DNA from: Nitrosopumilus sp.
GTDB taxonomy: Archaea; Thermoproteota; Nitrososphaeria; Nitrososphaerales; Nitrosopumilaceae
Reading direction: 5' to 3'
Assembly: GCA_965206745.1 (NCBI GenBank)
Contig: OZ242220.1
Location: forward strand, 1,795,079-1,859,078
Length of the DNA: 64,000 nucleotides
Under the pieces are notes generated by a model. It had not been told where the DNA came from and ran no database searches. It saw only the letters and a list, made by a program, of their open reading frames with translations. Position numbers and translations under genes: made by a program. Position 1 is the first letter of the stretch. Each line of letters begins with the position of its first letter. Below are positions 34,579 to 63,283 of this stretch, one piece after another.

Positions 34579-34651
34579 AGCCCGGTAGTGTAGCGGTCAA
34601 GCATAGAGGCCTTTGAAGCCTTTGACCCCAGTTCGAGTCTGGGCCGGGCTA
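34579..34651 (+). tRNA. tRNA-Gln(TTG)
   Basis: AGCCCGG/CCGGGCT acceptor with A1-U72, anticodon loop CT-TTG-AA, GTTCGAGT T-loop, T-tract downstream. Confidence 0.95.
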
Positions 34652-34693: not shown

Positions 34694-35786
34694 TCTTGTA
34701 TGAATAGTATTGTTTTTTATGGTATTCTACTCCATCCATTTTGAGTTGTTTTCCTGATCACTTCGGAGACACAATTATCTCTGTCTCATCCTGGAGTTTG
34801 GTCCATCAATGTATAATGAAAAATGCAATCTATCCCCATTGTAGTAACTCTGAATTCGGACATCTCTCCAAGGTGAACCAGTTCTGCCTTCAATGTACCA
34901 AAGAATCCCTCAATCTTGTCACTAGTCTGTGGATGTTTTACACATACCAAAAACTGCACCATGTTGTGATCAGTTAGCTCTTGCCGGTATAATGCAAGTT
35001 TACTGTTCGATGAATCCCATGTTAGGTACAAATTGAGTTCCGTGGTGAGAGTGTCTGTCCTGAGATTTCAGAATTTCTTTATGGCGTTCCTTAGAATCAA
35101 TATCGTATTTTCTGATGTTGCTTCAGGGAACAATCCAGATTCAGTTACACACCTTGATGCATCATCAAGATACATTATCAAATTCGGTTCCTTTAGGCAT
35201 GGATCCTTCATTTTGTGCCAGTCAACATGCCAAATTGCGTTTGAATACTTTCATTCAAATCGTATATGGGGCCATTTACTCAAAAAACCAAGCATAGAAA
35301 TATTTTCAACAATGCCGATTCATATCAGATTGAAAGGCAGAGACGGCCTCATCAAATCGTACTCACTTGCATCTCTGTAGTTTATTTTTTGAGGATACCA
35401 CTAGACCTTCCTGTTTCATTATATGGCATATTTGATGATAAGATACTTTGGATTATTGCAGATGGTCGTTTTTTCATATGTCTTACACCTGCCGGTTCTT
35501 TGTCGTACATCTCTAGAATTTTGATGTCTTGCTTGGCTGAGATCTGTTTTGATCTGCAATGTTCTTTGACTGTGCAATGTGTGTGTTTTGGGATAATATC
35601 ACCATATCTTGCAGATCCAATCTACAGATTGTCTAGTTCCTGAGCAATGACTATTGCATATTTTTTTCTGTTTGTTGTGTATGATGCCTCCTTGATTGAG
35701 GCTTCTAATGGACATTATTATTGATCACTGAATTCTTGTGTGATTCCTTTGTTTGTTTAGTTTGGATGTATACTATTTGCACAACA
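34694..35786 (-). mobile_element. Decayed IS481-family element (transposase pseudogene)
   Basis: Frame-broken minus-strand peptides YERKYSNAIWHVDW..LIMYLDDASR..LFPEATSEN and HPQTSDKIEGFFGTLK (rve/DDE core); degenerate terminal IRs TCTTGTATGAATAGTAT and, on the reverse strand, TGTTGTGCAAATAGTAT; about 1.1 kb. Confidence 0.8.
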
Positions 35787-51187: not shown

Positions 51188-51818
51188 AAAGGGCCAGTCT
51201 ATCGAAGATGCCAGCATGCAGATGATTGAGGATGAGATAGGCCCTCACCAGTTCGGTGAAAAGGAATGGCCCATTGTCAGAAGAATAATTCATTCAACGG
51301 CAGATTTTGATTTTGCAGGAAAAAACAAGCTAATTTTTCACAAGGATGCAATTCAGAGTGCAATGAAGGCCTTGCAGGGAGGCTGCAGCATAGTAGTTGA
51401 TGTCAACGGGGTGATCGGAGGGATGAATAAGCAAAATCCGAAAGATTTCGGTAACGACATAGTTTGTAACATTTCAAAACCGGAGATCATGGAATTGGCA
51501 AAGAAGGAGGGCAAGACGCGCTCACAGGTATCCATGAGGGCGGCGATTTCAGATATTGACGGAGGGGTTGTGGCAATTGGAAATGCCCCGACTGCCCTGC
51601 AGGAAGTAATCCAGATGGTCAAAGAAGGCACGGTAAAGCCTGCCTTGATCATCGGGATTCCGGTGGGATTCATATGCGCTGCAGAGTCAAAGGAGGAGCT
51701 AGCCAAGCTGCAACAGGTGCCATTTATCACAAATATTGGGAGAAAGGGCGGAAGTTCCTCAGTATCTGCAGTAATTAACGCAATTTTCAAGTTAATCAGG
51801 GCAGAGTCATCTTCTTGA
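51177..51818 (+). CDS. cbiC: Precorrin-8X methylmutase
   Basis: IE..S, RIIHSTAD, TRS, IGNAPTAL, PVGF..A.ESK, GRKGGS. Confidence 0.95.
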   Translation: MQTRKGQSIEDASMQMIEDEIGPHQFGEKEWPIVRRIIHSTADFDFAGKNKLIFHKDAIQSAMKALQGGCSIVVDVNGVIGGMNKQNPKDFGNDIVCNISKPEIMELAKKEGKTRSQVSMRAAISDIDGGVVAIGNAPTALQEVIQMVKEGTVKPALIIGIPVGFICAAESKEELAKLQQVPFITNIGRKGGSSSVSAVINAIFKLIRAESSS

Positions 51819-53162
51819 GTGTCTCAGGCAGTTTTTGACAAAGATCTCTGCATAGTCTGAGCTGTCAAAATACAGGTGCCCATAGGATGCCAGGGTATTG
51901 TACTGCATCAATCCGTCCTGATGCTTCCTGATTCCCTCACCTATTTCCAGACTATAGGCAAACTTTGAATCAGAGGCAACTGAGCTTAGTTCCGAATAAT
52001 GGAACTCATGGCCATGAAAACCGTGTAACTTGTCAGAAATTGGATTTTTTGAGATTATTTTGCCTCTGGTATAGTTTAGCCTCATCTTGTCTGTCATTTT
52101 AGTTTCGGCATCAAATAGGCCAACCATTTCATATCTCTTATTTTTAGATGAGATAGACTTTGTCAGGTACATCAGCCCTCCGCATTCGGCATAAATTGGA
52201 AGGTTCTCCTCAGATAGTTTTCTTATTGATCTTTTCATGGTTTGGTTCTTTGCAAGGGCACTCCCCAAAACTTCAGGAAATCCGCCGCCGATGTAGAGTC
52301 CATCACATTCCGGAATCTTTCTGTCTTTTACAGGACTGAAAAATTTTAAACTTGCGCCTTGGCGACGCAGTGCCTCCAGATTGTCCTGATAGTAGAAATT
52401 AAACGAGGTATCAAGTGCCACTGCGATGGTGGTTTTTGTTTTCTTTTGTGCAGGTTTTGGTTTTTTGGCAAGATCGGCGGAATTTTTTGCAATCTTTACT
52501 ATTTGATCAACATCAAGGGACTTGGATATCATTCTCGAGACTTTCTGAATCTGTCTTTTGAGAGTTTCATCTTTTAATGTTGAGATCAATCCCAGATGCC
52601 TCGAAGGCATGTTCAGCAGCGGATCTTTTGGAACGGCCCCAATTATTGGAATTTTAATTTTTTTGAGGGCACTTTTGCACAAAAGCTCGTGCCTCTTGCT
52701 GCCTATCTTGTTTAGAATGATTCCAGAGATTCGAGAGTTCCTATGAAACTTTAGGAATCCAAGTGCAGTGGCGGCAATAGAGCGTGACGTCTTGCTGGCA
52801 TCTAGAACCAGCAGGACATGGGATTTTGTCAGTGATGCCACATGGTGAGTGCTGGCATAGTTTGAATCACCGCCAAATCCATCATAGTACCCCATGACGC
52901 CCTCTATTACAGAGACATCAGATCTTGAATTTGAAATAAAGCTGTTCAAAAGCTGTTGTTTGCCCATAAGCCACGCATCCAAGTTGTACGTTTGATTTTT
53001 TGAGATACTTGAGAGGTAGCCCGGATCAATGTAATCAGGTCCGACCTTGAAGGGCTGGACTGACAGGCCGTATTTTTGCAAGGCGTAAATTATTGAACAT
53101 GCAATTGAGGTCTTGCCAACTCCGCTAGTGGCACCTGCAACTACAATTCTGGGAACTCTCAA
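51807..53162 (-). CDS. cbiA: Cobyrinate a,c-diamide synthase
   Basis: SGVGKT, FKVGPDYIDP, EGVMG.YDG, SRHLGL, GGGFPE, AECGGLMYL, GHEFHYS. Confidence 0.95.
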   Translation of the reverse strand: MRVPRIVVAGATSGVGKTSIACSIIYALQKYGLSVQPFKVGPDYIDPGYLSSISKNQTYNLDAWLMGKQQLLNSFISNSRSDVSVIEGVMGYYDGFGGDSNYASTHHVASLTKSHVLLVLDASKTSRSIAATALGFLKFHRNSRISGIILNKIGSKRHELLCKSALKKIKIPIIGAVPKDPLLNMPSRHLGLISTLKDETLKRQIQKVSRMISKSLDVDQIVKIAKNSADLAKKPKPAQKKTKTTIAVALDTSFNFYYQDNLEALRRQGASLKFFSPVKDRKIPECDGLYIGGGFPEVLGSALAKNQTMKRSIRKLSEENLPIYAECGGLMYLTKSISSKNKRYEMVGLFDAETKMTDKMRLNYTRGKIISKNPISDKLHGFHGHEFHYSELSSVASDSKFAYSLEIGEGIRKHQDGLMQYNTLASYGHLYFDSSDYAEIFVKNCLRHSRR

Positions 53163-53243
53163 TTTGCATGACTAGGATCATTTTTTATTTAAATTGATAG
53201 ATTTCGTGTTCTGAGTTCTGTCTAATAATCTGGTGTTAGGCAC

Positions 53244-53276
53244 AGACATAAAATACGGATCTTCTCTGAATTGAAA
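53244..53276 (+). repeat. Dispersed repeat copy A (core AAATACGGATCTT at 53251-53263)
   Basis: AGACATAAAATACGGATCTTCTCTGAATTGAAA matches the copies at about 54132 and 54206. Confidence 0.8.
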
Positions 53277-53305
53277 AGAGTCGATTATTGTGTATGATAT
53301 GAGAA

Positions 53306-53596
53306 TCAAGTAAAAAAAGACCGAAGTTGCTTCATAACACCACTAATACTCAAGCCAGCTATTATGGCAACTATTACTATATTATCAAGCATCAACGTAT
53401 CTGTACCAACTAATACTGCAAAAATCATAATTGCAAAAATAGAGACTAACACCAATACAAATGATTTAACATCTTTAGATTTTTGATATCCTAACTCCAT
53501 TTGCCTAATCTTGATATCTTCATCTGTATCTCCTTTATGTTTATCAGATGGGATGTCCGGAGAGCGTATATCATCATTGTCTCTGCTGTTCGGCAT
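53306..53596 (-). CDS. Small two-TM membrane protein, candidate PanT toxin
   Basis: Charged N-terminal half plus two hydrophobic helices; overlaps the 3' end of the Panacea gene by 23 nt. Confidence 0.65.
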   Translation of the reverse strand: MPNSRDNDDIRSPDIPSDKHKGDTDEDIKIRQMELGYQKSKDVKSFVLVLVSIFAIMIFAVLVGTDTLMLDNIVIVAIIAGLSISGVMKQLRSFFT

Positions 53597-54071
53597 TACA
53601 TAACTCCGTATAATGTTCCTTAATCACTTCATTAGGAATCTCTACAAATTTTTTGCCTTTTTTGTAATATCTAGACCAAGGCGTATCTTTCTTATGTGTG
53701 ATATATGATAAATATGTTCCATCTTTGTTCCCATATTGCTCAATTACACGATCCATGATTGAGCGTTGCTCTGTATTAAATTCACTTTCTATTGCCTCAC
53801 GTCTATCTTTAATTTGATCACTGTTTAATTCCACAGCACAATAATACAAACTAGTGATTGGATTGCCCCTATAATCTTTAAATGCATGATAGACAGTAGG
53901 GATTACTGGTCCATGTTCCCAAGCCTCAACTTTTTCTTCTATCAAACTTTTGTTGGTTTTAGCTAATGTGTATCCATGACTTATGTATACCAATTTTATG
54001 ATGTGTAGCGGAGTTAAAGAGATATCAGAATGAGACAAAATATAATCTGCTACCATTAGACCAGATGACAT
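53574..54071 (-). CDS. Panacea-domain antitoxin (DUF4065/SocA/GepA)
   Basis: VADYIL, LTPL.IIKLVY..HG, EAW.HGPVIP.VY..FK, V...YG...G..LS..TH....PW. Confidence 0.9.
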   Translation of the reverse strand: MSSGLMVADYILSHSDISLTPLHIIKLVYISHGYTLAKTNKSLIEEKVEAWEHGPVIPTVYHAFKDYRGNPITSLYYCAVELNSDQIKDRREAIESEFNTEQRSIMDRVIEQYGNKDGTYLSYITHKKDTPWSRYYKKGKKFVEIPNEVIKEHYTELCNAEQQRQ

Positions 54072-54131
54072 TCAAGATGTTAAAAACATACTATCATTTA
54101 ATGCTATGGTATTATGTAATCTTGGAGATAT

Positions 54132-54283
54132 AGACATGAAATACGGATCTTATTCCGATTCAAAAAAACCCCTCTAGGATGTCAAATTACTGTGTGTTTA
54201 GCACCAAATACGGATCTTCTTTGAATTCAAAATATCTCTGACTTTGGTTAAACACCGCGATCTGATCACCATTTGTGACCAGA
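54132..54283 (+). repeat. Dispersed repeat copies B and C plus a 25-bp tail shared with 62378-62402
   Basis: AAATACGGATCTT at 54139 and 54206 (67-nt spacing); GATCTGATCACCATTTGTGACCAGA at 54259-54283. Confidence 0.8.
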
Positions 54284-54337
54284 GCACAGATTTCGGACAT
54301 TCTTAATGTTTTTAGAGAGATCTGTCGGATCAGGTTT

Positions 54338-54871
54338 ATGGAGAGTGATGGCTTGACAATTGTTTACACCGGAAAAGGAAAGGGAAAGACAACTGCCGCC
54401 CTGGGAATCGCCTTGCGTGCGGCAGGATATGAAAAGAGGACATGCATGATTCAGTTCATCAAGGGCTCGTGGCACTACGGTGAGATGGAGTCATCTAAAA
54501 GGCTCGAACCAGAGTTTGAGATGGTGGCAGTCGGCAAGGGGTTTGTGGGCATAATTGATGACAAAAGTCCAAAAGAAGATCACAGGAGAGTGGCAAGGGA
54601 GGCAGTCAGAATCAGCAATCAAAGAATCCAATCAGGGGATTACGATATCGTAATTTTAGATGAGATAAACTATGCAGTAAACCTCAACCTAATTTCAGTT
54701 GATGATGTTCTAAGCATCATAAAATCAAAACCAAAAAACGTGGATTTGGTGTTGACTGGAAATCATGCAAAAGACGAGGTCATAGAGATTGCCGACCTAG
54801 TTACAGAGATGAGGGAGATAAAACACCCGTTCCAGCAGGGAATTAAAGCAAAGAAAGGCATTGATTTCTAG
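54338..54871 (+). CDS. cobO: Cob(I)yrinic acid a,c-diamide adenosyltransferase (CobO/BtuR)
   Basis: VYTG.GKGKTTAALG, QFIKG, ILDEI, LVLTG, ADLVTEM..IKHPF..G..A.KGIDF; start placed at ATG 54338. Confidence 0.95.
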   Translation: MESDGLTIVYTGKGKGKTTAALGIALRAAGYEKRTCMIQFIKGSWHYGEMESSKRLEPEFEMVAVGKGFVGIIDDKSPKEDHRRVAREAVRISNQRIQSGDYDIVILDEINYAVNLNLISVDDVLSIIKSKPKNVDLVLTGNHAKDEVIEIADLVTEMREIKHPFQQGIKAKKGIDF

Positions 54872-54912
54872 CCAGCAAACATTAATTTACGCATAAATGA
54901 GTTTTAGAAGAA

Positions 54913-55710
54913 ATGTCCACTGAAATTCAAGAGATGCCCGAGCAGGGGGAGATTATTATTGCAACGATCACCAAGGTGATGGATCATGGGGCATATGTCA
55001 CATTAGACGAGTATGATGGCATCCAGGGGTTTTTGCACATCTCAGAGATTGCCCCGGGATGGATTAGATCAGTGAACAGGTTTGTCAGGGACGGGGAGAA
55101 GAAGGTTCTCCTTGTAAAAAAAGTGAACACCCAGCGGGGGGACATAGATCTCTCACTAAAGCAGGTTTCAAAAGATCAGAAGAAGCAAAAGCTAAAAGAA
55201 GTCAAGAAATTCGAAAAGGGCAAGACACTGCTGCAAAATGTTCAAGAGAAAACAAAATTATCAGATGAAGAGATAGAAAAATTAGAAGACAGTATCTATG
55301 CAAAGTTTGATTCAGTCTATGATGCCTTTGTATCCATCGGAAGAAATGGGATAGACTCGGCAAAGGAACTCAATCTTGCAAAAAAGACTGCCACGGTAAT
55401 TGAGGATATTTGTTCAAAAATCAAGCTTCCCTCAGTAGAAATCAGAGGAATAATGGAGATTACAAACAATCAATCAGACGGTGTAGAGATAATCAAAAAA
55501 ACATTGCTGGATATCATCAAGAAGGATTCCACTGCAGACATTACATACTTGGGTGCGCCAAAGTATAGACTGTCAATCGTCTCAGAAGATTTCAAAACCG
55601 CAGAAAGGCTACTAAAGCCAATCATTGAAGAGGTCGAGACCAACATCCAAAAGAAGAAAGGCTCCTTCAAGTTTACTAGAGAAGACTCAAAGAAGACAAG
55701 AGAAAATTAA
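54913..55710 (+). CDS. eif2a: Translation initiation factor aIF2 alpha
   Basis: S1 domain PE.GE...GAYV.LDEY..G.LHISE, IDLSLK, GAPKY. Confidence 0.95.
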   Translation: MSTEIQEMPEQGEIIIATITKVMDHGAYVTLDEYDGIQGFLHISEIAPGWIRSVNRFVRDGEKKVLLVKKVNTQRGDIDLSLKQVSKDQKKQKLKEVKKFEKGKTLLQNVQEKTKLSDEEIEKLEDSIYAKFDSVYDAFVSIGRNGIDSAKELNLAKKTATVIEDICSKIKLPSVEIRGIMEITNNQSDGVEIIKKTLLDIIKKDSTADITYLGAPKYRLSIVSEDFKTAERLLKPIIEEVETNIQKKKGSFKFTREDSKKTREN

Positions 55711-55711
55711 G

Positions 55712-55888
55712 ATGCGGTTTTTATTAAGAAAATGCTCAAAGTGCAGTCATTACACATTGAAGGAAAAATGTCCAAAGTGCGGCAATGAGACTATCTCTGT
55801 TCATCCTGCCAAATTTTCACCAGATGACAAATACATGAGATACAGGCTGGCAGAGAGATATTCAAAGAGTCAGGATGCAGGACTGTAA
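55712..55888 (+). CDS. nop10: H/ACA RNP protein Nop10
   Basis: MRFLLRKCSKC..YTLKEKCPKCG....HPAKFSPDDKY..YR, directly after aIF2a (conserved order). Confidence 0.93.
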   Translation: MRFLLRKCSKCSHYTLKEKCPKCGNETISVHPAKFSPDDKYMRYRLAERYSKSQDAGL

Positions 55889-58002
55889 TCCTTGTTGATC
55901 TCATAGATAAAAATGCCTAACACAGGCCCGGTCGTTTCTTCTGTAAAACTAGGGGAGGCATAAACCAGTCTTAACGGCCCATCGCCATCAGGGGGAAATT
56001 TGATGTCCTTTGCATAGATTCCAACCGTGCCAGGAGCATAGGTTTGTGATTGCTGGGTTGAGTTGTTTGGATTAACATAACCCAGTGGAGAAAAGGGGAA
56101 CATCTTGCCAAGCATAGTATCATTCCAAAAATGATCAGTTCCACTAATTCCATCATTATGTATGTATTTTCTTAGATCATCTCCTGCTATCTTGATAAAC
56201 CACTGTTTTTTGGACTCGTCTCCGCCCCCTCCCAGTCTGTAAAACGAGTCATCTCCAGCTAGGGCTAATTTCTCAGCCACTACAAAAACAAGAACATAGT
56301 CAGCCTGCATATCATTGAGCATGTTCCATGCCGAATCCGGGCTACTTAGGAACATTTTTGCAATATTTTCGATGATATGGGTATAGATTGTCGAATTGTC
56401 TGCCAGTGTGGCTCTCTCAGCCATTGTAGAAATCCAATAGCCATAATCCCACCAGGAAGCAATAACAGCGTCTTTGGGAGTGTTGTTCTTGATCCAATCC
56501 AATGCTTCAAGCCAGTCATCAGTGACAACAGGATATGCAGCGCCACCGTTCAAAATTGTGGGGGCCACATCAGTAAGAGAGGAGATCTCCGAACCTACAG
56601 GATAAACCATTGGAATCATCAGCAGTACGATAATGCCTGCGACGTATGGTAGTTGTATGAATTTACTAATGGATTTAGTGCGTGAATTTTCAAACAAGTC
56701 TCTTGTCAATATGGCCAAACCCAATGAAGCCAAGATTATCAGAGAGATAGACGCAAATACTTCCAACCTGATAAACGTGGCACCGACGTAAACTCCTACA
56801 ATTCCCATAATCAGTGAAAATATCAGCAGGTCATTTTTCTGTAATGTAGAATCTGTATTTTTGATATTCCTAATTACCAACCAAACGCCCAGACCTGCAA
56901 AAATCATGAATACCGAGTTAAACAGGAATGACTGTGCCAATGTTGTTGTTGCGTGTTCTGATACAGAATCTACTAGCGGATTGGTGGTAGTCAAAAATGG
57001 ATTTAGCGCATTGAGGTATCTGTGACTGGGTAAAGGCAAAAATTGAGATTCAGAGTTGATGATCATGAGGCTTGAGGCCATAACTAAAATTGCAAGTAAA
57101 AATAACAACCCATTTCGTTTTTTGTGTTTCTGACTTTTCTTTTGGATGAGAATACAGAGTATTAAAAATACCGTTGGAAGTATTAGTGAAATTCCACCCA
57201 ATCCAAAAATGAAATTAGAGCTTACACGTTCAAATCCCAAAGATGTCACTATTGTGGAAATCGTGTATAAAGGAACGGCCCATACGATGAATTTGTGATC
57301 AGTTCGCAAAAATGGCAGTGCAAGAAAGAAGAGGCCTATTGGAATGATAAAGAACTGATTTCCGCCCCAGGCAGAAAGTGAAAACGTTGTAAAAATTCCA
57401 GCACCAATCAACTTGGCAAATGCAATTTTTTTATTTTGAGAACTAATTCCACTTAATAGAAGATATATTGCTAAAAGACCAAAAAACAACCCCAAAGGTT
57501 CTGATTTGAACCATCCGATTGGACTTCGGACTAGTATTGCCAGTGAAACAGGAAACAACATGGCTGCAAACAATCCAGCCGTTGTGCCTCCAATGACCCT
57601 AACTAGTGCAAAAATGACAATGCCGGCAAAAGAGACAAAGACTGCTGGAAATAAAATTGTAAAATCATACACATCCATTCCTCCACCAAAAATCCAGTAT
57701 GTGGTGGCTGCAGTCAGGTGAAGTATCACCTGGGATGTTGCAGATATGTCCCTGCCTGTAGGATACCAGCTTAGAGAGTCATCCCATTCAAAATATGCAG
57801 GAATGCCGTTATCGACGATATACTGGGTTGCACGATAATTAAAAAAAGGATCAAATTCATTTAATTCAAAACCAGCATCAACTGGTTGGGCACGAAGAAG
57901 AAATGATACCGTAAAGGACAGACTGAGGATTCCGATGATTAAAAGATGATTAAATTTTAAATCAAAACTACCAATAGAGACAAGTTTTTTGTTTGCTAGC
58001 AA
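55870..58002 (-). CDS. aglB: Oligosaccharyltransferase AglB (STT3)
   Basis: EFDPFF, WYP.GR, SVSEH, WWDYGYWI, DN.T; multiple TM helices. Confidence 0.95.
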   Translation of the reverse strand: MLANKKLVSIGSFDLKFNHLLIIGILSLSFTVSFLLRAQPVDAGFELNEFDPFFNYRATQYIVDNGIPAYFEWDDSLSWYPTGRDISATSQVILHLTAATTYWIFGGGMDVYDFTILFPAVFVSFAGIVIFALVRVIGGTTAGLFAAMLFPVSLAILVRSPIGWFKSEPLGLFFGLLAIYLLLSGISSQNKKIAFAKLIGAGIFTTFSLSAWGGNQFFIIPIGLFFLALPFLRTDHKFIVWAVPLYTISTIVTSLGFERVSSNFIFGLGGISLILPTVFLILCILIQKKSQKHKKRNGLLFLLAILVMASSLMIINSESQFLPLPSHRYLNALNPFLTTTNPLVDSVSEHATTTLAQSFLFNSVFMIFAGLGVWLVIRNIKNTDSTLQKNDLLIFSLIMGIVGVYVGATFIRLEVFASISLIILASLGLAILTRDLFENSRTKSISKFIQLPYVAGIIVLLMIPMVYPVGSEISSLTDVAPTILNGGAAYPVVTDDWLEALDWIKNNTPKDAVIASWWDYGYWISTMAERATLADNSTIYTHIIENIAKMFLSSPDSAWNMLNDMQADYVLVFVVAEKLALAGDDSFYRLGGGGDESKKQWFIKIAGDDLRKYIHNDGISGTDHFWNDTMLGKMFPFSPLGYVNPNNSTQQSQTYAPGTVGIYAKDIKFPPDGDGPLRLVYASPSFTEETTGPVLGIFIYEINKDYSPAS

Positions 58003-58058
58003 TTTGTATTTTTTAAAAAATCTTTGCTTATTATTCTTTGTATAAGGGATTGCGCCGA

Positions 58059-58511
58059 TTAGGGGGCATATCTTCCTGTAAGGGCAGATTCCTCAATGAT
58101 GTGGTTTCTCATCTCTAGTTCAATCTCTTTTTTCGTTGAGCCTTTGTCGGCAGATAACTTTTGATCTAACGCATAGAGCTTGAAGACATACGTATGCTCC
58201 CTGTCAGGAGGCGCAGGTCCGCCATAGCCAATTTCGCCAAAATCAGTCTCCCCCTGCATGCAATTTGGGGGGATGGAATTTTCTTGAAATTGGGGATTCT
58301 GGGGATCTATATTCCAAACTACCCAGTGCACCCAAACTTTTCCAACTGCACCGACTGCATCAGGATCATCCATAATCAGGGCAAGCGAGACAGTGTTCTT
58401 GGGAATCTGACTTGTTTGCAGAGGCGGACTGACGTTTCCGTGTTTGTATCCGTATTTTTTTGGGATGACTCCGCCATCTTCAAATGCCTTGCTCTCCAAA
58501 ATTAGGGCCAT
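58059..58511 (-). CDS. YbhB/YbcL (PEBP/Raf kinase inhibitor-like) protein
   Basis: SPPL, MDDPDA, WVHWVVWNI, GY.GP.PP, H.Y.F.LYALD. Confidence 0.92.
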   Translation of the reverse strand: MALILESKAFEDGGVIPKKYGYKHGNVSPPLQTSQIPKNTVSLALIMDDPDAVGAVGKVWVHWVVWNIDPQNPQFQENSIPPNCMQGETDFGEIGYGGPAPPDREHTYVFKLYALDQKLSADKGSTKKEIELEMRNHIIEESALTGRYAP

Positions 58512-58545
58512 ACCATAACGTAAGGCAGCTCAAAGTTAAATATTT

Positions 58546-58914
58546 CTAAGATTCTAAAACAATTTTGTCGTTTGAAACCGATATTATCGAACTGCCACTG
58601 TTTTTGATCTGTTTTTTCAGCTCCCTGTCCATCGTGGCCACGATTACTCTGTTTTTTGATGCATAGTCAAGCAGCTCCTTGTCCGCAAAGGAGCCGGATA
58701 TGGGAATTACTTTAAAATTTTTGATGTAATTTAGGGTCGATTGTATATCTGGTTTCTTCTCCGGTCTTTTTTCCAACTCAAGCAGTTCGTTTTTTACGAC
58801 TTGGGGTACAACAAAACTGAGCCGGCCTATCTCTACATCCAAATTATCTAAATTCCTGATTCTGTGTGTAGCTAGGTGAATCAGAAAGTTTGTGTCACAG
58901 ATTACTTCAACCAA
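58546..58914 (-). CDS. PIN-domain protein (Fcf1/Utp24-like)
   Basis: DTNFL, V..EL, AD, VATMD.EL; coupled to aIF2g as in most archaea. Confidence 0.88.
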   Translation of the reverse strand: MVEVICDTNFLIHLATHRIRNLDNLDVEIGRLSFVVPQVVKNELLELEKRPEKKPDIQSTLNYIKNFKVIPISGSFADKELLDYASKNRVIVATMDRELKKQIKNSGSSIISVSNDKIVLES

Positions 58915-60169
58915 CTATTCCTGCACCGATTAGTCTCCATCTTTCAGCAATCCTTCTGCTGATGGCAACGTTGCCACCCTCGAAGATGCATGCAGGTCTC
59001 CTGAGCTCAATCTCAATGTTTTTGGACTTGATCTTGGTAACTTTTCCTAATACCGGAGCGGTTCCAATGTTGAGTCGGAGCAGTTCGCCAGATGAGATTG
59101 GCTGTACCTTGATGTCTTCAGTTATACCAACAGCAGAATCAAACAGGCTCACTTCCAACTTTAACAAGGTGGAATTGTCAGGAAGTGTGCCGGGTTTGCC
59201 AATGACTGAGCCGATAAACGAATCACTTCTGGTCATTGAGGGGTCTAATTTTGTTCCAATGGCCACCAGGCCACCAGGCTTTACTGATTCGACGATTCCT
59301 GCAGCGGTTCCCAGCGAAGTGATTTCTGTCAACAGGGGCTCGTATGTTTTTTTCTTTTCGTTGATAATGCCAGGCTTGATTTCAATTTCATCACCAATAT
59401 TGAAGATTCCCTGAGTGAGGCTTCCGCCGATGACGCCGCCTTTGATATCCTTTAATTTTATTCCAGGCTTGTTAACATCAAAGGAACGCAGAACGTGCAT
59501 TACCGTGTCAGCCTTCTCATCCCTTTTTGGCGTTTTGATTGTAGATTCAATGGCGCCAATTAGCGCATCAATGTTTAATTTGGATTGTGCAGAGATCGGA
59601 ATTACGGGAGCCTTTGCAGCATAGGTTCCCTTGACAAATTTTGCAATATCTTGATAATTTGCAAGTGCCTCTTCATAAGATAACAGATCAACTTTGTTCT
59701 GGACCACAACAATCTGCTGAATTCCAAGGGTTTGAAGTGCCAACAGGTGTTCTTTTGTTTGCGGCTTGGGAACTTTTTCATTTGCCGCAGCCAACAATAA
59801 TGCGCCATCCATCAGTGCAGAGCCTGAAAGCATGTTTGCCATCAGGCTTTCGTGTCCAGGACTATCCACAAAGCTGACAACTCTGGATAGCTCACTTTCT
59901 TGCCCGCAGTTGTTGCATTTTGGAGTAGTAGAGTATCCCAGAGGTTCTTCACATTTCTTGCATTTGTAAAATGCCGCATCAGAGTAGCCTACACGGATTG
60001 TAATTCCACGTTTAAGCTCTTGACTATGTACGCTTGTCCACGAACCAGTTAAAGCTTGAATCAGAGTGGTTTTTCCATGATCCACGTGGCCGGCCGTACC
60101 AATGTTGACACATGGTTGATAGCCGTATTCTTTGGTGTACCAATCAGGAAGGGTTTCTCTCCAATGCAT
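58907..60169 (-). CDS. eif2g: Translation initiation factor aIF2 gamma
   Basis: QP.VNIG.AGHVDHGKTT, RGITI, zinc ribbon, DSPGHE, QNKVD, WRLIG.G. Confidence 0.97.
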   Translation of the reverse strand: MHWRETLPDWYTKEYGYQPCVNIGTAGHVDHGKTTLIQALTGSWTSVHSQELKRGITIRVGYSDAAFYKCKKCEEPLGYSTTPKCNNCGQESELSRVVSFVDSPGHESLMANMLSGSALMDGALLLAAANEKVPKPQTKEHLLALQTLGIQQIVVVQNKVDLLSYEEALANYQDIAKFVKGTYAAKAPVIPISAQSKLNIDALIGAIESTIKTPKRDEKADTVMHVLRSFDVNKPGIKLKDIKGGVIGGSLTQGIFNIGDEIEIKPGIINEKKKTYEPLLTEITSLGTAAGIVESVKPGGLVAIGTKLDPSMTRSDSFIGSVIGKPGTLPDNSTLLKLEVSLFDSAVGITEDIKVQPISSGELLRLNIGTAPVLGKVTKIKSKNIEIELRRPACIFEGGNVAISRRIAERWRLIGAGIVG

Positions 60170-60200
60170 GTGTCAAAAAGTAAAATCGGTATATGTTAAG

Positions 60201-60596
60201 TTATTCTTTTTTATCTTCAGTCTTTTCTTCTGTTGCTGCAGGAGCTTCAACTGGTAATTCTCCATCAAATTTACAGTTTACTTGGTATATTTCTTCAGAG
60301 ACTGTATCCCCTCGCATTAGTTTTCTTTTTCGCTCTCCATATTCAGCATCTTGTAAACCAACGCCCTTGACAAGCAAGACCCGCTTCCTTGCCGCACCAT
60401 GAAGATCATTTCTCATTGGAACTCCAGATTTGTCACTGCCTCCGGTAAGTGTTAACTTTCCAGTCAGCCCTGCAATTGATGCGTCAGTTTCATTTCCCAA
60501 CTGCAGCCCCAGCAATGGATTGGCGTCACTTTCTTTGAGTTCTTTTGAAATGGATCTGCCTTTGATGTCAGAGATTGTAAGTTTGAAATTTGCCAA
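60201..60596 (-). CDS. rps6e: 30S ribosomal protein S6e
   Basis: FKL.ISD, TGGSDKSG.PM, GER.RK..RG, QVN. Confidence 0.95.
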   Translation of the reverse strand: MANFKLTISDIKGRSISKELKESDANPLLGLQLGNETDASIAGLTGKLTLTGGSDKSGVPMRNDLHGAARKRVLLVKGVGLQDAEYGERKRKLMRGDTVSEEIYQVNCKFDGELPVEAPAATEEKTEDKKE

Positions 60597-60670
60597 TTAT
60601 TCCAAAAAAAAGTTGAACGACTAATTAACCTTTGGACATTATTTTTAAAACAGGATTGGCAAAGATAGGC

Positions 60671-60793
60671 ATGGCAGAAGAGATCAGATGTCCAAGATGC
60701 GATAAGAAGATGGTGGACATGCAAGCATGTCATATGTTTTGTCCAAACTGTGGAGCTCATTTAGATTGTTCAGATAAAGGGAGTTACTGGTAA
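60671..60793 (+). CDS. Small CPxCG-type zinc finger protein (40 aa)
   Basis: Manual translation MAEEIRCPRCDKKMVDMQACHMFCPNCGAHLDCSDKGSYW; TTTTTAAA TATA-like box about 25 nt upstream. Confidence 0.8.
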   Translation: MAEEIRCPRCDKKMVDMQACHMFCPNCGAHLDCSDKGSYW

Positions 60794-60967
60794 CTAAATT
60801 CCAGGCCTGTCTGGAATATAGTCAGATGACATGTTGATTGCCTGATCTTTCATGATTTCAAGATAGGTTTCATAATCTGCCTCAAAGTTACAATGGGGGC
60901 ATTTTACACTAGTGACATCATCGTCTAGTACCGCAACTTTTTCACATTCAGGGCATCTTGCATCCAT
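60794..60967 (-). CDS. Small zinc-ribbon protein (57 aa)
   Basis: Manual translation MDARCPECEKVAVLDDDVTSVKCPHCNFEADYETYLEIMKDQAINMSSDYIPDRPGI; TTAAATA box about 25 nt upstream; stop abuts the convergent gene. Confidence 0.8.
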   Translation of the reverse strand: MDARCPECEKVAVLDDDVTSVKCPHCNFEADYETYLEIMKDQAINMSSDYIPDRPGI

Positions 60968-61005
60968 GCTTTGAGTTAGCAGTCAAGATATTTAATCATA
61001 GTTGA

Positions 61006-61142
61006 TCACTGCACTGCTTAATTGAGTGAGGGTTTCACTCGTCTGTAAAGTTAGAGTGGTTTCAGTACATTCTCCATATGTGGGATGACTAGGATATACA
61101 TAGAGACAGGTAGAAAACCTCACCTATTGTACAGCTGAGTGA
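61006..61142. mobile_element. MITE-like element with imperfect terminal inverted repeats
   Basis: Left end TCACTGCACTGCTTAATTGAGTGAGGGTTTC versus reverse complement of right end TCACTCAGCTGTACAATAGGTGAGGTTTTC; non-coding, 137 bp. Confidence 0.5.
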
Positions 61143-61150
61143 AAACATTA

Positions 61151-62242
61151 CTAACAGTGCACTCTATCATGCATTTGACAAGTCCCTGAAGCAAAAATTT
61201 GTAATGGTCCACCACCTTGACCTGATGGACCAGAGTCTGTACTTTGTGTTCGGAATTCAGGATATTCTACAAAAAAGTCATCGACAAATCTCTGCGATAG
61301 TTTCATGGTATTCAACAAAAAGCCTTGGACATCAGTTACGTCGTATGTGTTTTGGTTGTGTCTTACAAAGTCAGCAAAACCTTCCCATATATTTTTAGGT
61401 ACATAGTCTGAAACCACACCAGATTCGGCTCTAACTCTTGGTTCTGGTTTGGGTATTGGATTGTGAACACCGTCCTTAACAAAACGTGTATTTCTATCAA
61501 CAAAACTATTACCAATTTCAGTTCCATCACTAGGCGAACTTCCGCGATATACACGTGCATCATTTTTGAAAATTGCACCATCATCTGTTTTATGTATCTG
61601 ATAAGATGCATCCGTTCCAATTTTTGCCCAATCATATTCATATGTCATTGGACGGGTCAGTGTGATGGACATCTGTCCTGAAGTACTTTCAGAATATGGT
61701 GCTATGTTAAGATGGGCATGATATGTATGTGGAGTATAGAATTCACCATATGTTAATGTTGACCGAGTTGCATCGGTAGAAAATTCCTCTGGAAGTAGCA
61801 ATGAAATCTCATTAACTAATTCACCTTTGTAGTAATCTTTGTCATCACCCTCCCACTGCAAGGTGTAGTTTAAAGTCACTGGCTGACCTACAACAAACTC
61901 ACGCGGTAACTCAAATGTAATATTGGGTTCTGGTTCCTTAACCATTCCACCAACAGAAGATTTACTTTCTCCCCTGATTACATCCACATTGCCTTGTGTT
62001 GTCTTTACAGCCTCAATTGGCAAATAGCCTCGTTTAATTAGCTTCTCAGATGTTGCCTGAGTCAAACAGACGGGTTTGCCTGCAGGGGATTCCATCAGGA
62101 TTTTATTATCATTGCACTGAATCTGGTTTATTGGAGTACCGTTTTTGAGTTGATCCCGTGGTGATGATTCTGCATATGCTGGGGCAATCATCATTCCGAT
62201 AAATAACACTGTGAAGAGGATCATGGTTGCATTTCTAACCAT
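61151..62242 (-). CDS. Secreted hypothetical protein, probably C-terminally truncated
   Basis: Signal peptide (..APAYA), SP..Q...G....C...P.C...L..RG module common in Nitrosopumilaceae exported proteins (from memory); ends in a Gly/Ser linker next to the MITE-like element. Confidence 0.7.
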   Translation of the reverse strand: MVRNATMILFTVLFIGMMIAPAYAESSPRDQLKNGTPINQIQCNDNKILMESPAGKPVCLTQATSEKLIKRGYLPIEAVKTTQGNVDVIRGESKSSVGGMVKEPEPNITFELPREFVVGQPVTLNYTLQWEGDDKDYYKGELVNEISLLLPEEFSTDATRSTLTYGEFYTPHTYHAHLNIAPYSESTSGQMSITLTRPMTYEYDWAKIGTDASYQIHKTDDGAIFKNDARVYRGSSPSDGTEIGNSFVDRNTRFVKDGVHNPIPKPEPRVRAESGVVSDYVPKNIWEGFADFVRHNQNTYDVTDVQGFLLNTMKLSQRFVDDFFVEYPEFRTQSTDSGPSGQGGGPLQIFASGTCQMHDRVHC

Positions 62243-62322
62243 TGCAAATTTGTAAAATCTATAGTATTAAAATAATTTAAAGCGATTATTTTGATGCTAT
62301 GAAACTGGTGTAGATTAAGTAT

Positions 62323-62402
62323 CAAATGTAGATCTTGTTCCTATCTGAAAAATCACCCAGCTCTGCTCAAACATAGTGATCAGATCACCATTTGTGACCA
62401 GA
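62323..62402 (+). repeat. Dispersed repeat copy D (homologous to 54205-54283)
   Basis: CAAATGTAGATCTT...AAACA...GATCAGATCACCATTTGTGACCAGA; last 25 nt are 24/25 identical to 54259-54283. Confidence 0.75.
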
Positions 62403-62477
62403 ACCGTAAAGCCTCCACTCAATTAAACAGTGCAAAGGTCAATTAGGGATATAAGGAACTTTTTGGGGTGATAATTA

Positions 62478-62630
62478 ATGGCAAAATACGATGGTCTGTT
62501 AGGACAGCCGATACTTGAAGTTGAGGAACCAGATAAGGAAGGCGGAATCACCTTCATCTTCAAAGACAACAGGTTTATGTTCATAAAAGCAGTAGATGGC
62601 AAAATTGAGACCGTATCAATCCCGGAATAG
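62478..62630 (+). CDS. Microprotein (50 aa), paralog of the downstream gene
   Basis: MAKYDGLLGQPILEVEEPDKEGGITFIFKDNRFMFIKAVDGKIETVSIPE; SD-like GGGGTGA upstream. Confidence 0.8.
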   Translation: MAKYDGLLGQPILEVEEPDKEGGITFIFKDNRFMFIKAVDGKIETVSIPE

Positions 62631-62640
62631 GTGGACATGA

Positions 62641-62787
62641 ATGGAAAAATTTGACCAAATCAAAATGCTTGAACTTGTAAAAGTGGAAGATCCCGATGCA
62701 GACGGTGGATTGACCTTGATGTTCCAGGAAGAGAAGACCCTGAAGATTAAAGTCGTGGATGGAAAGCTAGTTTCGGAATTCGTTTAA
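62641..62787 (+). CDS. Microprotein (48 aa), paralog of the upstream gene
   Basis: MEKFDQIKMLELVKVEDPDADGGLTLMFQEEKTLKIKVVDGKLVSEFV; SD-like AGGTGG upstream. Confidence 0.8.
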   Translation: MEKFDQIKMLELVKVEDPDADGGLTLMFQEEKTLKIKVVDGKLVSEFV

Positions 62788-62788
62788 A

Positions 62789-63283
62789 CTAGTTTCTCAC
62801 ATGTTTTTCATAAAATCCGATAGCTAGTTCCTGTACCTTGGATTGGATTGATCCCGGTCTTTGATCTCGAATTTTCTTGATTGCATCCCCTGCTGAAAAT
62901 TTTTCATACTTTACAAAATAACACGCAAGTATCGTCCCGGCTCTTCCCATTCCGGCTGCACAGTGAACCATCACAGCTTGATCACTTTTAATCTGTTCGT
63001 GTATAAAGTCCACTGCCGAATCTATTCTGTCCATGTCAGGGGCTGTCAGGTCAGGAGTCGGGACATGAAGATATTCAATGTCTTGGACCCACTCATCTGG
63101 CAACGGCTGCTCAGTCATGGTTACAATTGATTGTATGCCCTGGTCAAGAAGCCAACCAAATTCATCAAAACTTGTTGGAATGCCTGATCCTGCCAGCTGA
63201 TCTTTGATTAGCCAAGAAAAGTTTGTTGGCTTTTTTGTGATTTTACCATGAACCTTCCTCCAGATGTTCCCAGGCTTGCTCAT
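62789..63283 (-). CDS. Dual-specificity protein phosphatase (CDC14/PTP-like)
   Basis: NFSW..LAG..P, PD..AP, HCAAGMGRAG (CX5R), IR..RPGSIQ...Q. Confidence 0.92.
   Translation of the reverse strand: MSKPGNIWRKVHGKITKKPTNFSWLIKDQLAGSGIPTSFDEFGWLLDQGIQSIVTMTEQPLPDEWVQDIEYLHVPTPDLTAPDMDRIDSAVDFIHEQIKSDQAVMVHCAAGMGRAGTILACYFVKYEKFSAGDAIKKIRDQRPGSIQSKVQELAIGFYEKHVRN

Follow-up and report, generated by a model that had tools for sequence, protein, structure and literature searches.

Ammonia-oxidising archaea of the group to which Nitrosopumilus belongs have small, streamlined genomes, and how they gain accessory genes is poorly known. In a 64,000-nt stretch of a Nitrosopumilus sp. chromosome (henceforth the window: positions 1795079–1859078 of contig C1 of genome G000, assembly GCA_965206745.1, 1.86 Mb, 41% G+C, 99.6% complete), the same non-coding element of ~80 bp stands beside two unrelated accessory genes 8 kb apart. 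This raises the question of what the element is and what it has to do with the genes next to it. Our answer, to which we give a probability of about 80%, is that the element combines two derivatives, both without a transposase gene, of an insertion sequence (IS) resembling the IS6 family.

The two copies (54205–54283 and 62323–62402, in window coordinates) have the same orientation, as the original prediction had it, and a global alignment leaves 60 of 81 columns identical. Both lie, again as described, to the right of the start of a minus-strand gene, which at the first site (site A) encodes a Panacea-domain protein (53574–54071) and at the second (site B) is an open reading frame (ORF) of 363 aa (61151–62242). 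A 25-nt core, GATCWGATCACCATTTGTGACCAGA, is found exactly twice in the window, at 54259–54283 and 62378–62402, the two copies agreeing in 24 of 25 letters; no further match with up to three mismatches was present there, and 100 dinucleotide shuffles gave an expectation of 0.00. This core makes up just the right-hand arm of an imperfect palindrome of 47 bp, of the form GGCTCTGGTCAAATAYRGTGATC-W-GATCACCATTTGTGACCAGAGCC, centred at 54263 and 62382. At site A two more copies of the module that precedes the palindrome (M1, see below) had been missed, an extra tandem one at 54111–54172 and a weak one at 53232–53277. The motif ATGCTATG, also reported as shared between gene start and repeat, is indeed present at both sites (54101–54108 and 62293–62300). 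Among 38 aligned copies of M1 it occurs in only these two and out of register, so it is not a feature of the family; it may be a degenerate outer tip.

That the element belongs to a dispersed family was borne out by the whole genome. A 20-nt half-site, with up to four mismatches, occurs 50 times in it against 2 in a shuffle, and profiles built from seven long copies gave 44 non-overlapping nhmmer hits (E<0.01) for a module of ~65 nt, M1, and 40 for the 47-bp palindrome, M2. M1 (core GAAATAYGGATCTTnTTCnGATTCAAAAAA) begins with the tip GGTTCTGT, followed by a spacer that varies and, subterminally, a conserved box, GAAATACGGATCTT..GATTCAAAAAA. In M2 the tip GGCTCTGG stands directly before TCAAATAYGGTGATC, and two ends are joined tip-outward at GATC-W-GATC; its arms read GGCTCTGGTCAAAT, with the tip GGCTCTG and then the subterminal box, which is TCAAATAYGGTGATC here and AAATACGGATCTT in M1. 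An M2 arm is thus a shortened end made of tip and box, and M2 amounts to two short ends with their tips outward and one base between them. The modules occur together or alone, alone as often as together. Eleven M1-M2 composites span 108–118 bp, with the M1 tip at the left and the tip of the right M2 arm at the right, so that inverted tips ~110 bp apart give the build of a MITE (miniature inverted-repeat transposable element); by the same token, inverted ends bracket whatever DNA separates an M1 from the far arm of an M2.

The hits are mostly intergenic (12 short or marginal ORFs of a crude ORF caller, which also underlies the gene orientations given below, overlap any of the 84), and 28 of the 44 M1 and 31 of the 40 M2 fall in a sector of 1.58–1.86 Mb plus 0–0.255 Mb that spans the contig ends and makes up 29% of the genome. 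GATC has a fixed place in every module, as GGATCTT in M1 and GATC-W-GATC in M2. At G000 1686423–1688472 (L041:3920–5977) five M2 have the centre GTTC-T-GTTC on the aligned strand instead of GATC-W-GATC; they alternate with small paralogous ORFs of 87–192 aa, all of which start ATGGATCAGTTAAATCAAAG ~30 nt from the palindrome, a start also seen after the M2 at 1707715 and 1771263.

Palindromes of this kind might act as hairpins of RNA or single-stranded DNA, that is, as repetitive extragenic palindromes (REPs) with a Y1 transposase, as terminators, as stabilisers of mRNA or as a small RNA gene. Arms of 20–23 nt would fold, and the copies are intergenic and dispersed like REPs. However, 78.5% of the M2 stem cells pair against 79.2% in shuffled alignments, 459 of 500 shuffles reaching the observed value, and the arms therefore appear to be kept as sequence and not as a fold. 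No Rfam family matched the window at gathering scores, nor the segment 53900–54500 at E up to 10; the Y1 transposase domain PF01797 had no match in the genome (the control was positive in 6 of 14 genomes), and TnpB (PF07282) was not found either. A hairpin function is in our view extremely improbable.

Site A provides the clearest view of what such ends can do. The core gene on its left encodes a cobyrinic acid a,c-diamide synthase-like protein with CbiA and CobB/CobQ amidotransferase domains (51807–53162, minus strand; PF07685, 145 bits; PF01656, 67 bits), and that on its right an ATP:corrinoid adenosyltransferase, CobO/BtuR (54275–54871, plus strand; PF02572, 214.7 bits), whose true start, judging from the sequence of relatives, is likely the ATG at 54339. 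Between them lies a unit of 1,081 bp (53207–54287) with inverted ends. It opens with a degenerate M1, tip outward (53207–53290, plus strand; start TGTTCTGAGTTCTGTCTAATAATC, core AAAATACGGATCTT; nhmmer match 53232–53277, 22.4 bits, E 1.7e-4), continues with two minus-strand cargo genes, an ORF of 96 aa (53306–53596) and the gene of the SocA/Panacea-domain protein of 165 aa (PF13274, 88.1 bits), and closes with three modules on the plus strand. These are an M1 (54111–54172, 50.4 bits), a long IS end with its tip towards the Panacea gene, a second M1 (54177–54242, 48.9 bits), whose core CAAATACGGATCTT opens the copy first noticed, and an M2 (54243–54287, 50.0 bits; left arm to 54262, centre T at 54263, right arm 54264–54287). 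With its right arm M2 supplies the unit's inverted end on this side, and the edge of the insertion falls between 54287 and 54288. The same eight letters, AGATTTCG, stand on both sides as a target-site duplication (53199–53206 and 54288–54295).

The state before insertion is preserved elsewhere. Three genomes of the genus (numbered with a G here: G017, G069 and G007) are collinear with the left flank up to 53204, homology to relatives resumes at 54288, and across the insertion point all three carry a single related 8-mer (AGATTTTA in G017, AGATTACA in G069). A contig from X1, a sequencing run used as contigs and derived from a strain ~99% identical to G000, joins 53198 to 54288 and skips 1,089 bp, with eight letters that fit both sides and 5 differences in 443 nt. 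The contigs of runs X1–X3, which may derive from RNA, were drawn on just where they cover the window; 61275–62900, for example, has no cover. Given the inverted ends, the 8-bp duplication and the empty site in the X1 strain and three congeners, the piece was inserted as a unit: it is transposon-like and was moved whole into the spacer between two cobalamin genes. The target would lie between the core promoters of these divergent genes, both promoter-like TATA stretches having remained. The cargo is a toxin-antitoxin-like gene pair, and the product of the 96-aa ORF (0 Pfam families) may be the partner of the Panacea protein. For the latter, the closest relatives found among species representatives are four, all from bacterial metagenome-assembled genomes, at 31–41% identity, and a scan of the genome collection returned just these four bacterial relatives and no second end-flanked Panacea unit.

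The original prediction had also considered a recombinase site, in which case the repeats would be integron-like attC or att sites at which cassettes are inserted without target duplication. Most copies do lack duplications, copies in direct orientation often bracket accessory genes (at site A, in a serpin/MORN array at 216–232 kb and in a small-gene array at 1686–1688 kb), and imperfect palindromes with a fixed asymmetry recall attC. Against this, the sole dated insertion, that of the Panacea unit, has an 8-bp duplication of an unrelated target, the signature of DDE transposases and not of an att core; paired arm positions reveal no compensatory change, and a folded site is thus not under selection; and PF00589, the tyrosine recombinase family, has 0 matches in G000 at E up to 0.01, the control being positive in 14 of 14 reference genomes (four of them archaea). 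With no tyrosine recombinase found in the genome, the suggestion is left unsupported, and we consider it most unlikely.

The ends can instead be traced to an IS that is still present in the genus. The sole DDE transposase gene near the repeats (G000 1602496–1603626) is intact, present as a single copy in the genome and encodes 377 aa, including an N-terminal zinc-binding domain. The best NCBIfam model of the protein is IS6 (NF033587), aligned from 1 to 202 of its 202 positions, and the match to Pfam DDE_Tnp_IS240 reaches 38–41 bits, above the cut-off of 27. Of 101 genomes of the genus, 45 have homologues, with as many as ~20 in one genome, and pairs of near-identical copies allowed us to define whole elements in congeners: one of 2.56 kb in G052 with inverted repeats of ~58 bp, two in G087 of 2.83 kb (51-bp perfect inverted repeats) and 1.72 kb, and one of 2.26 kb in G103 with 57-bp perfect terminal inverted repeats. 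Congener elements have M1-like inverted repeats at both ends (e.g. GGTTCTGTGAAGTTATCGAGGGATAACATGAAATACGGATCTTCTTCAAATTGAA), and the M1 model, run on 17 IS loci, gave 16 hits, located at the IS termini. The left inverted repeat of the G103 element shares 48 identities with the long inverted repeat of G000 and 43 with the window M1 at 54111–54172, among them ACATGAAATACGGATCTT. The terminal-repeat marks of the IS6 family (a GG tip with cTGTt and caaa motifs) are present: congener IS and M1 alike start with GGTTCTGT, and the M2 arms have the form given above. Of six full congener copies examined, three are flanked by 8-bp duplications (CAAGATTA and AAATTAAC, each 8/8, and one 7/8). By sequence, then, an IS6-like IS has M1 as its long terminal inverted repeat, and the original prediction was right in naming the end of an unknown mobile element among its options. 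Its further proposal of an undescribed cassette-insertion system finds no support, the ends belonging to an IS6-like family this widespread in the genus.

In G000 the resident transposase gene sits between an M2 on the left and three outward-facing ends on the right, one short and two M1, and the degenerate M1 at the left end of the Panacea unit aligns with the subfamily of inverted repeats that adjoins this gene. M2-like palindromes were detected in 11 of 61 genomes of the genus, G000 included, the others having very unequal numbers of 1 to 41 matches each; seven of the ten M2-positive congeners are listed with the transposase. Such a distribution is what a mobile family would show. G070 repeats the composite arrangement, a palindrome after an IS end, with an IS-end sequence of its own. 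Two further repeats were seen in congeners: G009 has ~35 dispersed copies of GG(C/T)TATGATGCAAAAT, possibly another family of IS ends, and G070 has ten tandem copies of GGTTCTGGTGCAAGGT with a spacing of 96 or 132 nt (G070:C1:1088626–1089577).

Several observations weigh against the derivation of both modules from an IS6-like element. The transposase scores 73.7 bits with the IS6 model, below the curated cut-off of 125, and it weakly matches the IS481, IS1 and IS3 models too. Neither a clean pair of ends nor a duplication was found around the resident transposase gene. In 16 IS loci of other genomes no M2 was detected, neither internally nor at the termini, and a pattern search of five congeners for an autonomous element with M2-type arms returned many dispersed matches, none of which formed a clear inverted pair flanking a transposase gene. 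Conservation between species is higher for M2-like palindromes than for the IS ends, which hints that the palindromes have a role of their own. The tips of the Panacea unit are degenerate (TGTTCTG and GTGCTCTG, with TG/GT instead of GG). Finally, target duplications are missing from the small copies: the best flanking 8-mer match averages 4.38 over 34 M2, against 4.39 for mismatched pairs, and inspection of the 11 composites by eye gave none. The duplication typical of the parent IS, by which a MITE is recognised, is accordingly absent from the small copies and seen just at the cargo-bearing unit.

With ~20% divergence among copies, decay alone is insufficient to erase such duplications, and most small copies therefore did not arise by simple cut-or-copy insertion, or have recombined since. 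A history compatible with an IS6-like origin can be proposed. A DDE transposase that cuts and joins the ends would be supplied in trans, the candidate being the resident zinc-finger IS6-like gene. Because duplications are often missing after the cointegrate and recombination routes of the IS6 family, most small copies would be old, rearranged or recombination-derived remnants, which may accumulate at, and help create, the variable spots that hold accessory genes.

Described systems offer parallels as well as differences. Passages of PMC7986276 name as marks of IS6 8-bp direct repeats, GG tips and cTGTt and caaa motifs, and describe transposases extended by a zinc finger, pseudo-compound transposons with repeated IS and routes that leave no duplication. 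Like these, the elements described here have a DDE transposase with its best full-length match to the IS6 model and a zinc-finger N-terminal extension as in the longer clade, tips with a G dinucleotide, CTGT and CAAA motifs, 8-bp duplications that copies often lack, and accessory genes bracketed by repeated ends in the manner of IS6/IS26 pseudo-compound transposons. They differ in being 1.7–2.8 kb long with 50–58-bp inverted repeats and extra ORFs (IS6 has ~0.8 kb and 14–20-bp repeats), in a transposase far from the curated members, and in that nearly all G000 copies are gene-less ends. The zinc-finger forms of those passages are mostly from Clostridia and the archaeal members from Euryarchaeota and Sulfolobales; just two MITEs are counted there for the whole IS6 family in ISfinder. 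As in MITEs, our copies are short, gene-less and intergenic, with IS ends in inverted orientation and many diverged copies in lineage-specific numbers; unlike MITEs, the small copies have no target duplications, the two modules also occur alone, and M2 is extreme in having one base between its ends. Tn3-derived inverted-repeat miniature elements (TIMEs; PMC4133298) are likewise transposase-less ends able to bracket and move unrelated DNA, as the Panacea unit appears to have been moved. They belong to another transposase family with another duplication length, and their mobility is experimental, whereas here it is deduced from one polymorphic insertion. The palindromes share with REPs and REP doublets (REPINs) mobilised by REP-associated tyrosine transposases (RAYTs) a dispersed intergenic position, imperfect symmetry, a size of 40–50 bp and a fixed asymmetry; unlike in those systems, G000 has no Y1/RAYT gene, the arms carry IS6-type tips, and the palindromes are joined to DDE-type IS ends.

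For archaea, passages of PMC6563490 report 244 IS of 13 families in 20 thaumarchaeal genomes and composite transposons with passenger genes as undetected in archaea, thaumarchaea included; the passages seen of an archaeal IS survey, PMC13343696, do not treat these elements. Our literature search found no description of this IS, of its miniature derivatives or of such elements in ammonia-oxidising archaea. The original prediction had named the end of a known IS as the outcome that would refute it, and this applies in spirit: the family is known, the particular IS and its derivatives are without a published description that we could find. The elements are thus of an ordinary, known kind (non-autonomous, IS6-like), in a lineage for which no earlier description was found.

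At site B the composite stands in a different setting. Relatives are collinear with the window to 61005; from 62438/62439 on, its counterpart in their chromosomes is far away. The intervening 1.43 kb is peculiar to G000 and holds the secreted-protein-like ORF of 363 aa (minus strand, no Pfam match) and an M1-M2 composite; two inverted copies of a third repeat, M3, bound it. The left edge of the piece carries one M3 (61010–61034, minus strand), 3' of the secreted-protein gene; the other, partial and inverted to it (62410–62434, plus strand), abuts the M2. Both modules are on the plus strand, M1 at 62295–62361 (42.1 bits), which opens the second of the copies first noticed, and M2 at 62362–62407 (48.7 bits; centre A at 62382, right arm 62383–62405). 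No target duplication was seen at this copy, and none is expected at a rearrangement joint. Joints in X4 within or between the two sites (54165 to 62359, 54171/62405 on opposite strands, and 54293 back to 54115) have sides of 25–46 nt, and we read them as assembler links between repeat copies and not as rearrangements.

M3 has 12 copies in the genome (up to 5 mismatches in 25; 0 in a shuffle), with a consensus of about ..GAGTGAAACCCCCACTCAATTAAACAGTGCA and usually a conserved extension of ~45 nt. Its usual place is 3' of secreted-protein, serpin and MORN-type genes. Ten copies lie beyond the window pair, e.g. at 79542, 273801, 1701318, 1705865, 1709728 and 1713680, and those at 1705865 and 1709728 abut degenerate M2-like sequence. 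The N-terminal coding part of the 363-aa ORF, together with its upstream DNA to ~62330, is 66–82% identical to ~12 other G000 loci, several of which precede MORN-repeat genes that also have an M1 upstream; by its sequence, this is a paralogous 5' module common to otherwise different, putatively exported proteins. A MORN_2 gene elsewhere (L030:4533–6704) adjoins a tandem pair of M1.

To what extent the family marks gene-acquisition spots, as had been predicted, was assessed in eight stretches (81 kb in total, picked for holding elements) by comparison with the nearest species. None of the 16 element sites lies in DNA that the nearest congeners have at that place, and the long gene runs between elements are unbroken in these stretches. 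The prediction that the family marks spots of gene acquisition is thus borne out. Three of the sites are in the window. Three more, in L034, are within insertions of ~270, 217 and 1,050 bp, the last of which adjoins a tRNA gene. Of two M2 in L017, one is a clean M2-only insertion of ~45 bp and the other stands at the edge of a genome-specific gene; the single M2 of L026 lies in a hypervariable spacer, and the composite of L035 opens an insertion of ~860 bp. Three elements of L043 share a 6.6-kb island, two of L045 are in insertions of 1.4 and 3.6 kb, and one site is a composite between trpA and pyrG. For the latter there is no clean empty site, the nearest species having other DNA there (~890 bp, with broken ORFs). 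Breaks with no detected element within the compared stretches are L034 q2233–2443 and L035 q2518–2591, besides the unmatched query ends of L045. An 840-bp insertion after the gene of ribosomal protein P1, with arm-like direct repeats at both edges, could not be resolved into single events and was set aside.

The same sites bear on the idea of a shared operator, by which M2, and perhaps M1, would be bound by a dimeric transcription factor of accessory genes and kept by selection. The intergenic position of the copies agrees with it, as does the retention across species of the palindrome centre GTGATCWGATCAC and the outer TCTGGT/ACCAGA while the middle varies; in addition, 30 of 44 M1 have beyond their tip a gene that points away from it, often 35–64 nt off (p = 0.02, with crude gene calls). 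The neighbouring genes, however, form no regulon. Pfam assignments of 99 flanking ORFs share no common function, ranging from trpA, pyrG, argS, SMC, topoisomerase and purD to serpins, MORN, Fic, restriction-modification, STAND and RelA/SpoT-like proteins, and M2 has no bias towards promoter spacers (++ 15, -- 13, -+ 7 and +- 5 of 40, near the genome-wide mix). Moreover, in 16 of 16 cases the corresponding spacer of the nearest species has no such site, and M1 is demonstrably an IS end. The operator proposed originally is therefore unsupported and, we think, very unlikely.

Some features of these neighbourhoods deserve a record of their own. The 1,050-bp insertion of L034 (L034:13261–14312, G000 ~1349760–1350810) is specific to G000, stands directly 3' of the tRNA gene and holds an M1 and a hydrophobic ORF of 147 aa; G017 has the tRNA gene and an empty site. 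The ~190 nt after the trpA stop (L031:2950–3140, G000 ~1060950–1061140) are 72–85% conserved in many congeners (query range to q630–644), contain no long ORF and may represent a small ORF or an RNA. In the window, 35044–35244 (minus strand) gives a weak match to an integrase core (rve, 17.8 bits, with an internal TGA) in a stretch of ~1.2 kb without long ORFs near the tRNA gene at 34579–34651; it is unrelated to the IS6-like transposase and possibly a remnant of an integrated element. The second contig of G000, C2 (2,066 bp), is internally repetitive, with many self-matches of 85–92% at offsets of ~143 nt and inverted; no match of C2 to C1, M1, M2 or the transposase was found.

A more ambitious interpretation, which we regard as rather doubtful, is that the gene-less ends serve as functional components of an IS26-type system by which these archaea capture genes. 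A single trans-acting transposase would then use the dispersed M1 and M2 as portable ends and landing pads, the palindromic M2 offering an end in either orientation, and segments with defence, toxin-antitoxin or secreted-protein genes would be joined beside existing copies without target duplication. If this were true, capture would produce the element-gene-element arrays as well as the variable sector of 0.53 Mb.

Taken as transposase-less derivatives of an IS6-like IS, the elements still have consequences for how these genomes are read. Their repeats resemble operators or small RNAs and break short-read assemblies, which calls for caution in annotation, and they are a practical marker for variable spots. 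The Panacea unit, with its 8-bp duplication and with the site empty in a strain ~99% identical, bears the marks of recent transposition. With ~80 end fragments in the genome, located at nearly every break of collinearity examined, the family offers a testable route for small-scale gene gain and rearrangement in this lineage.

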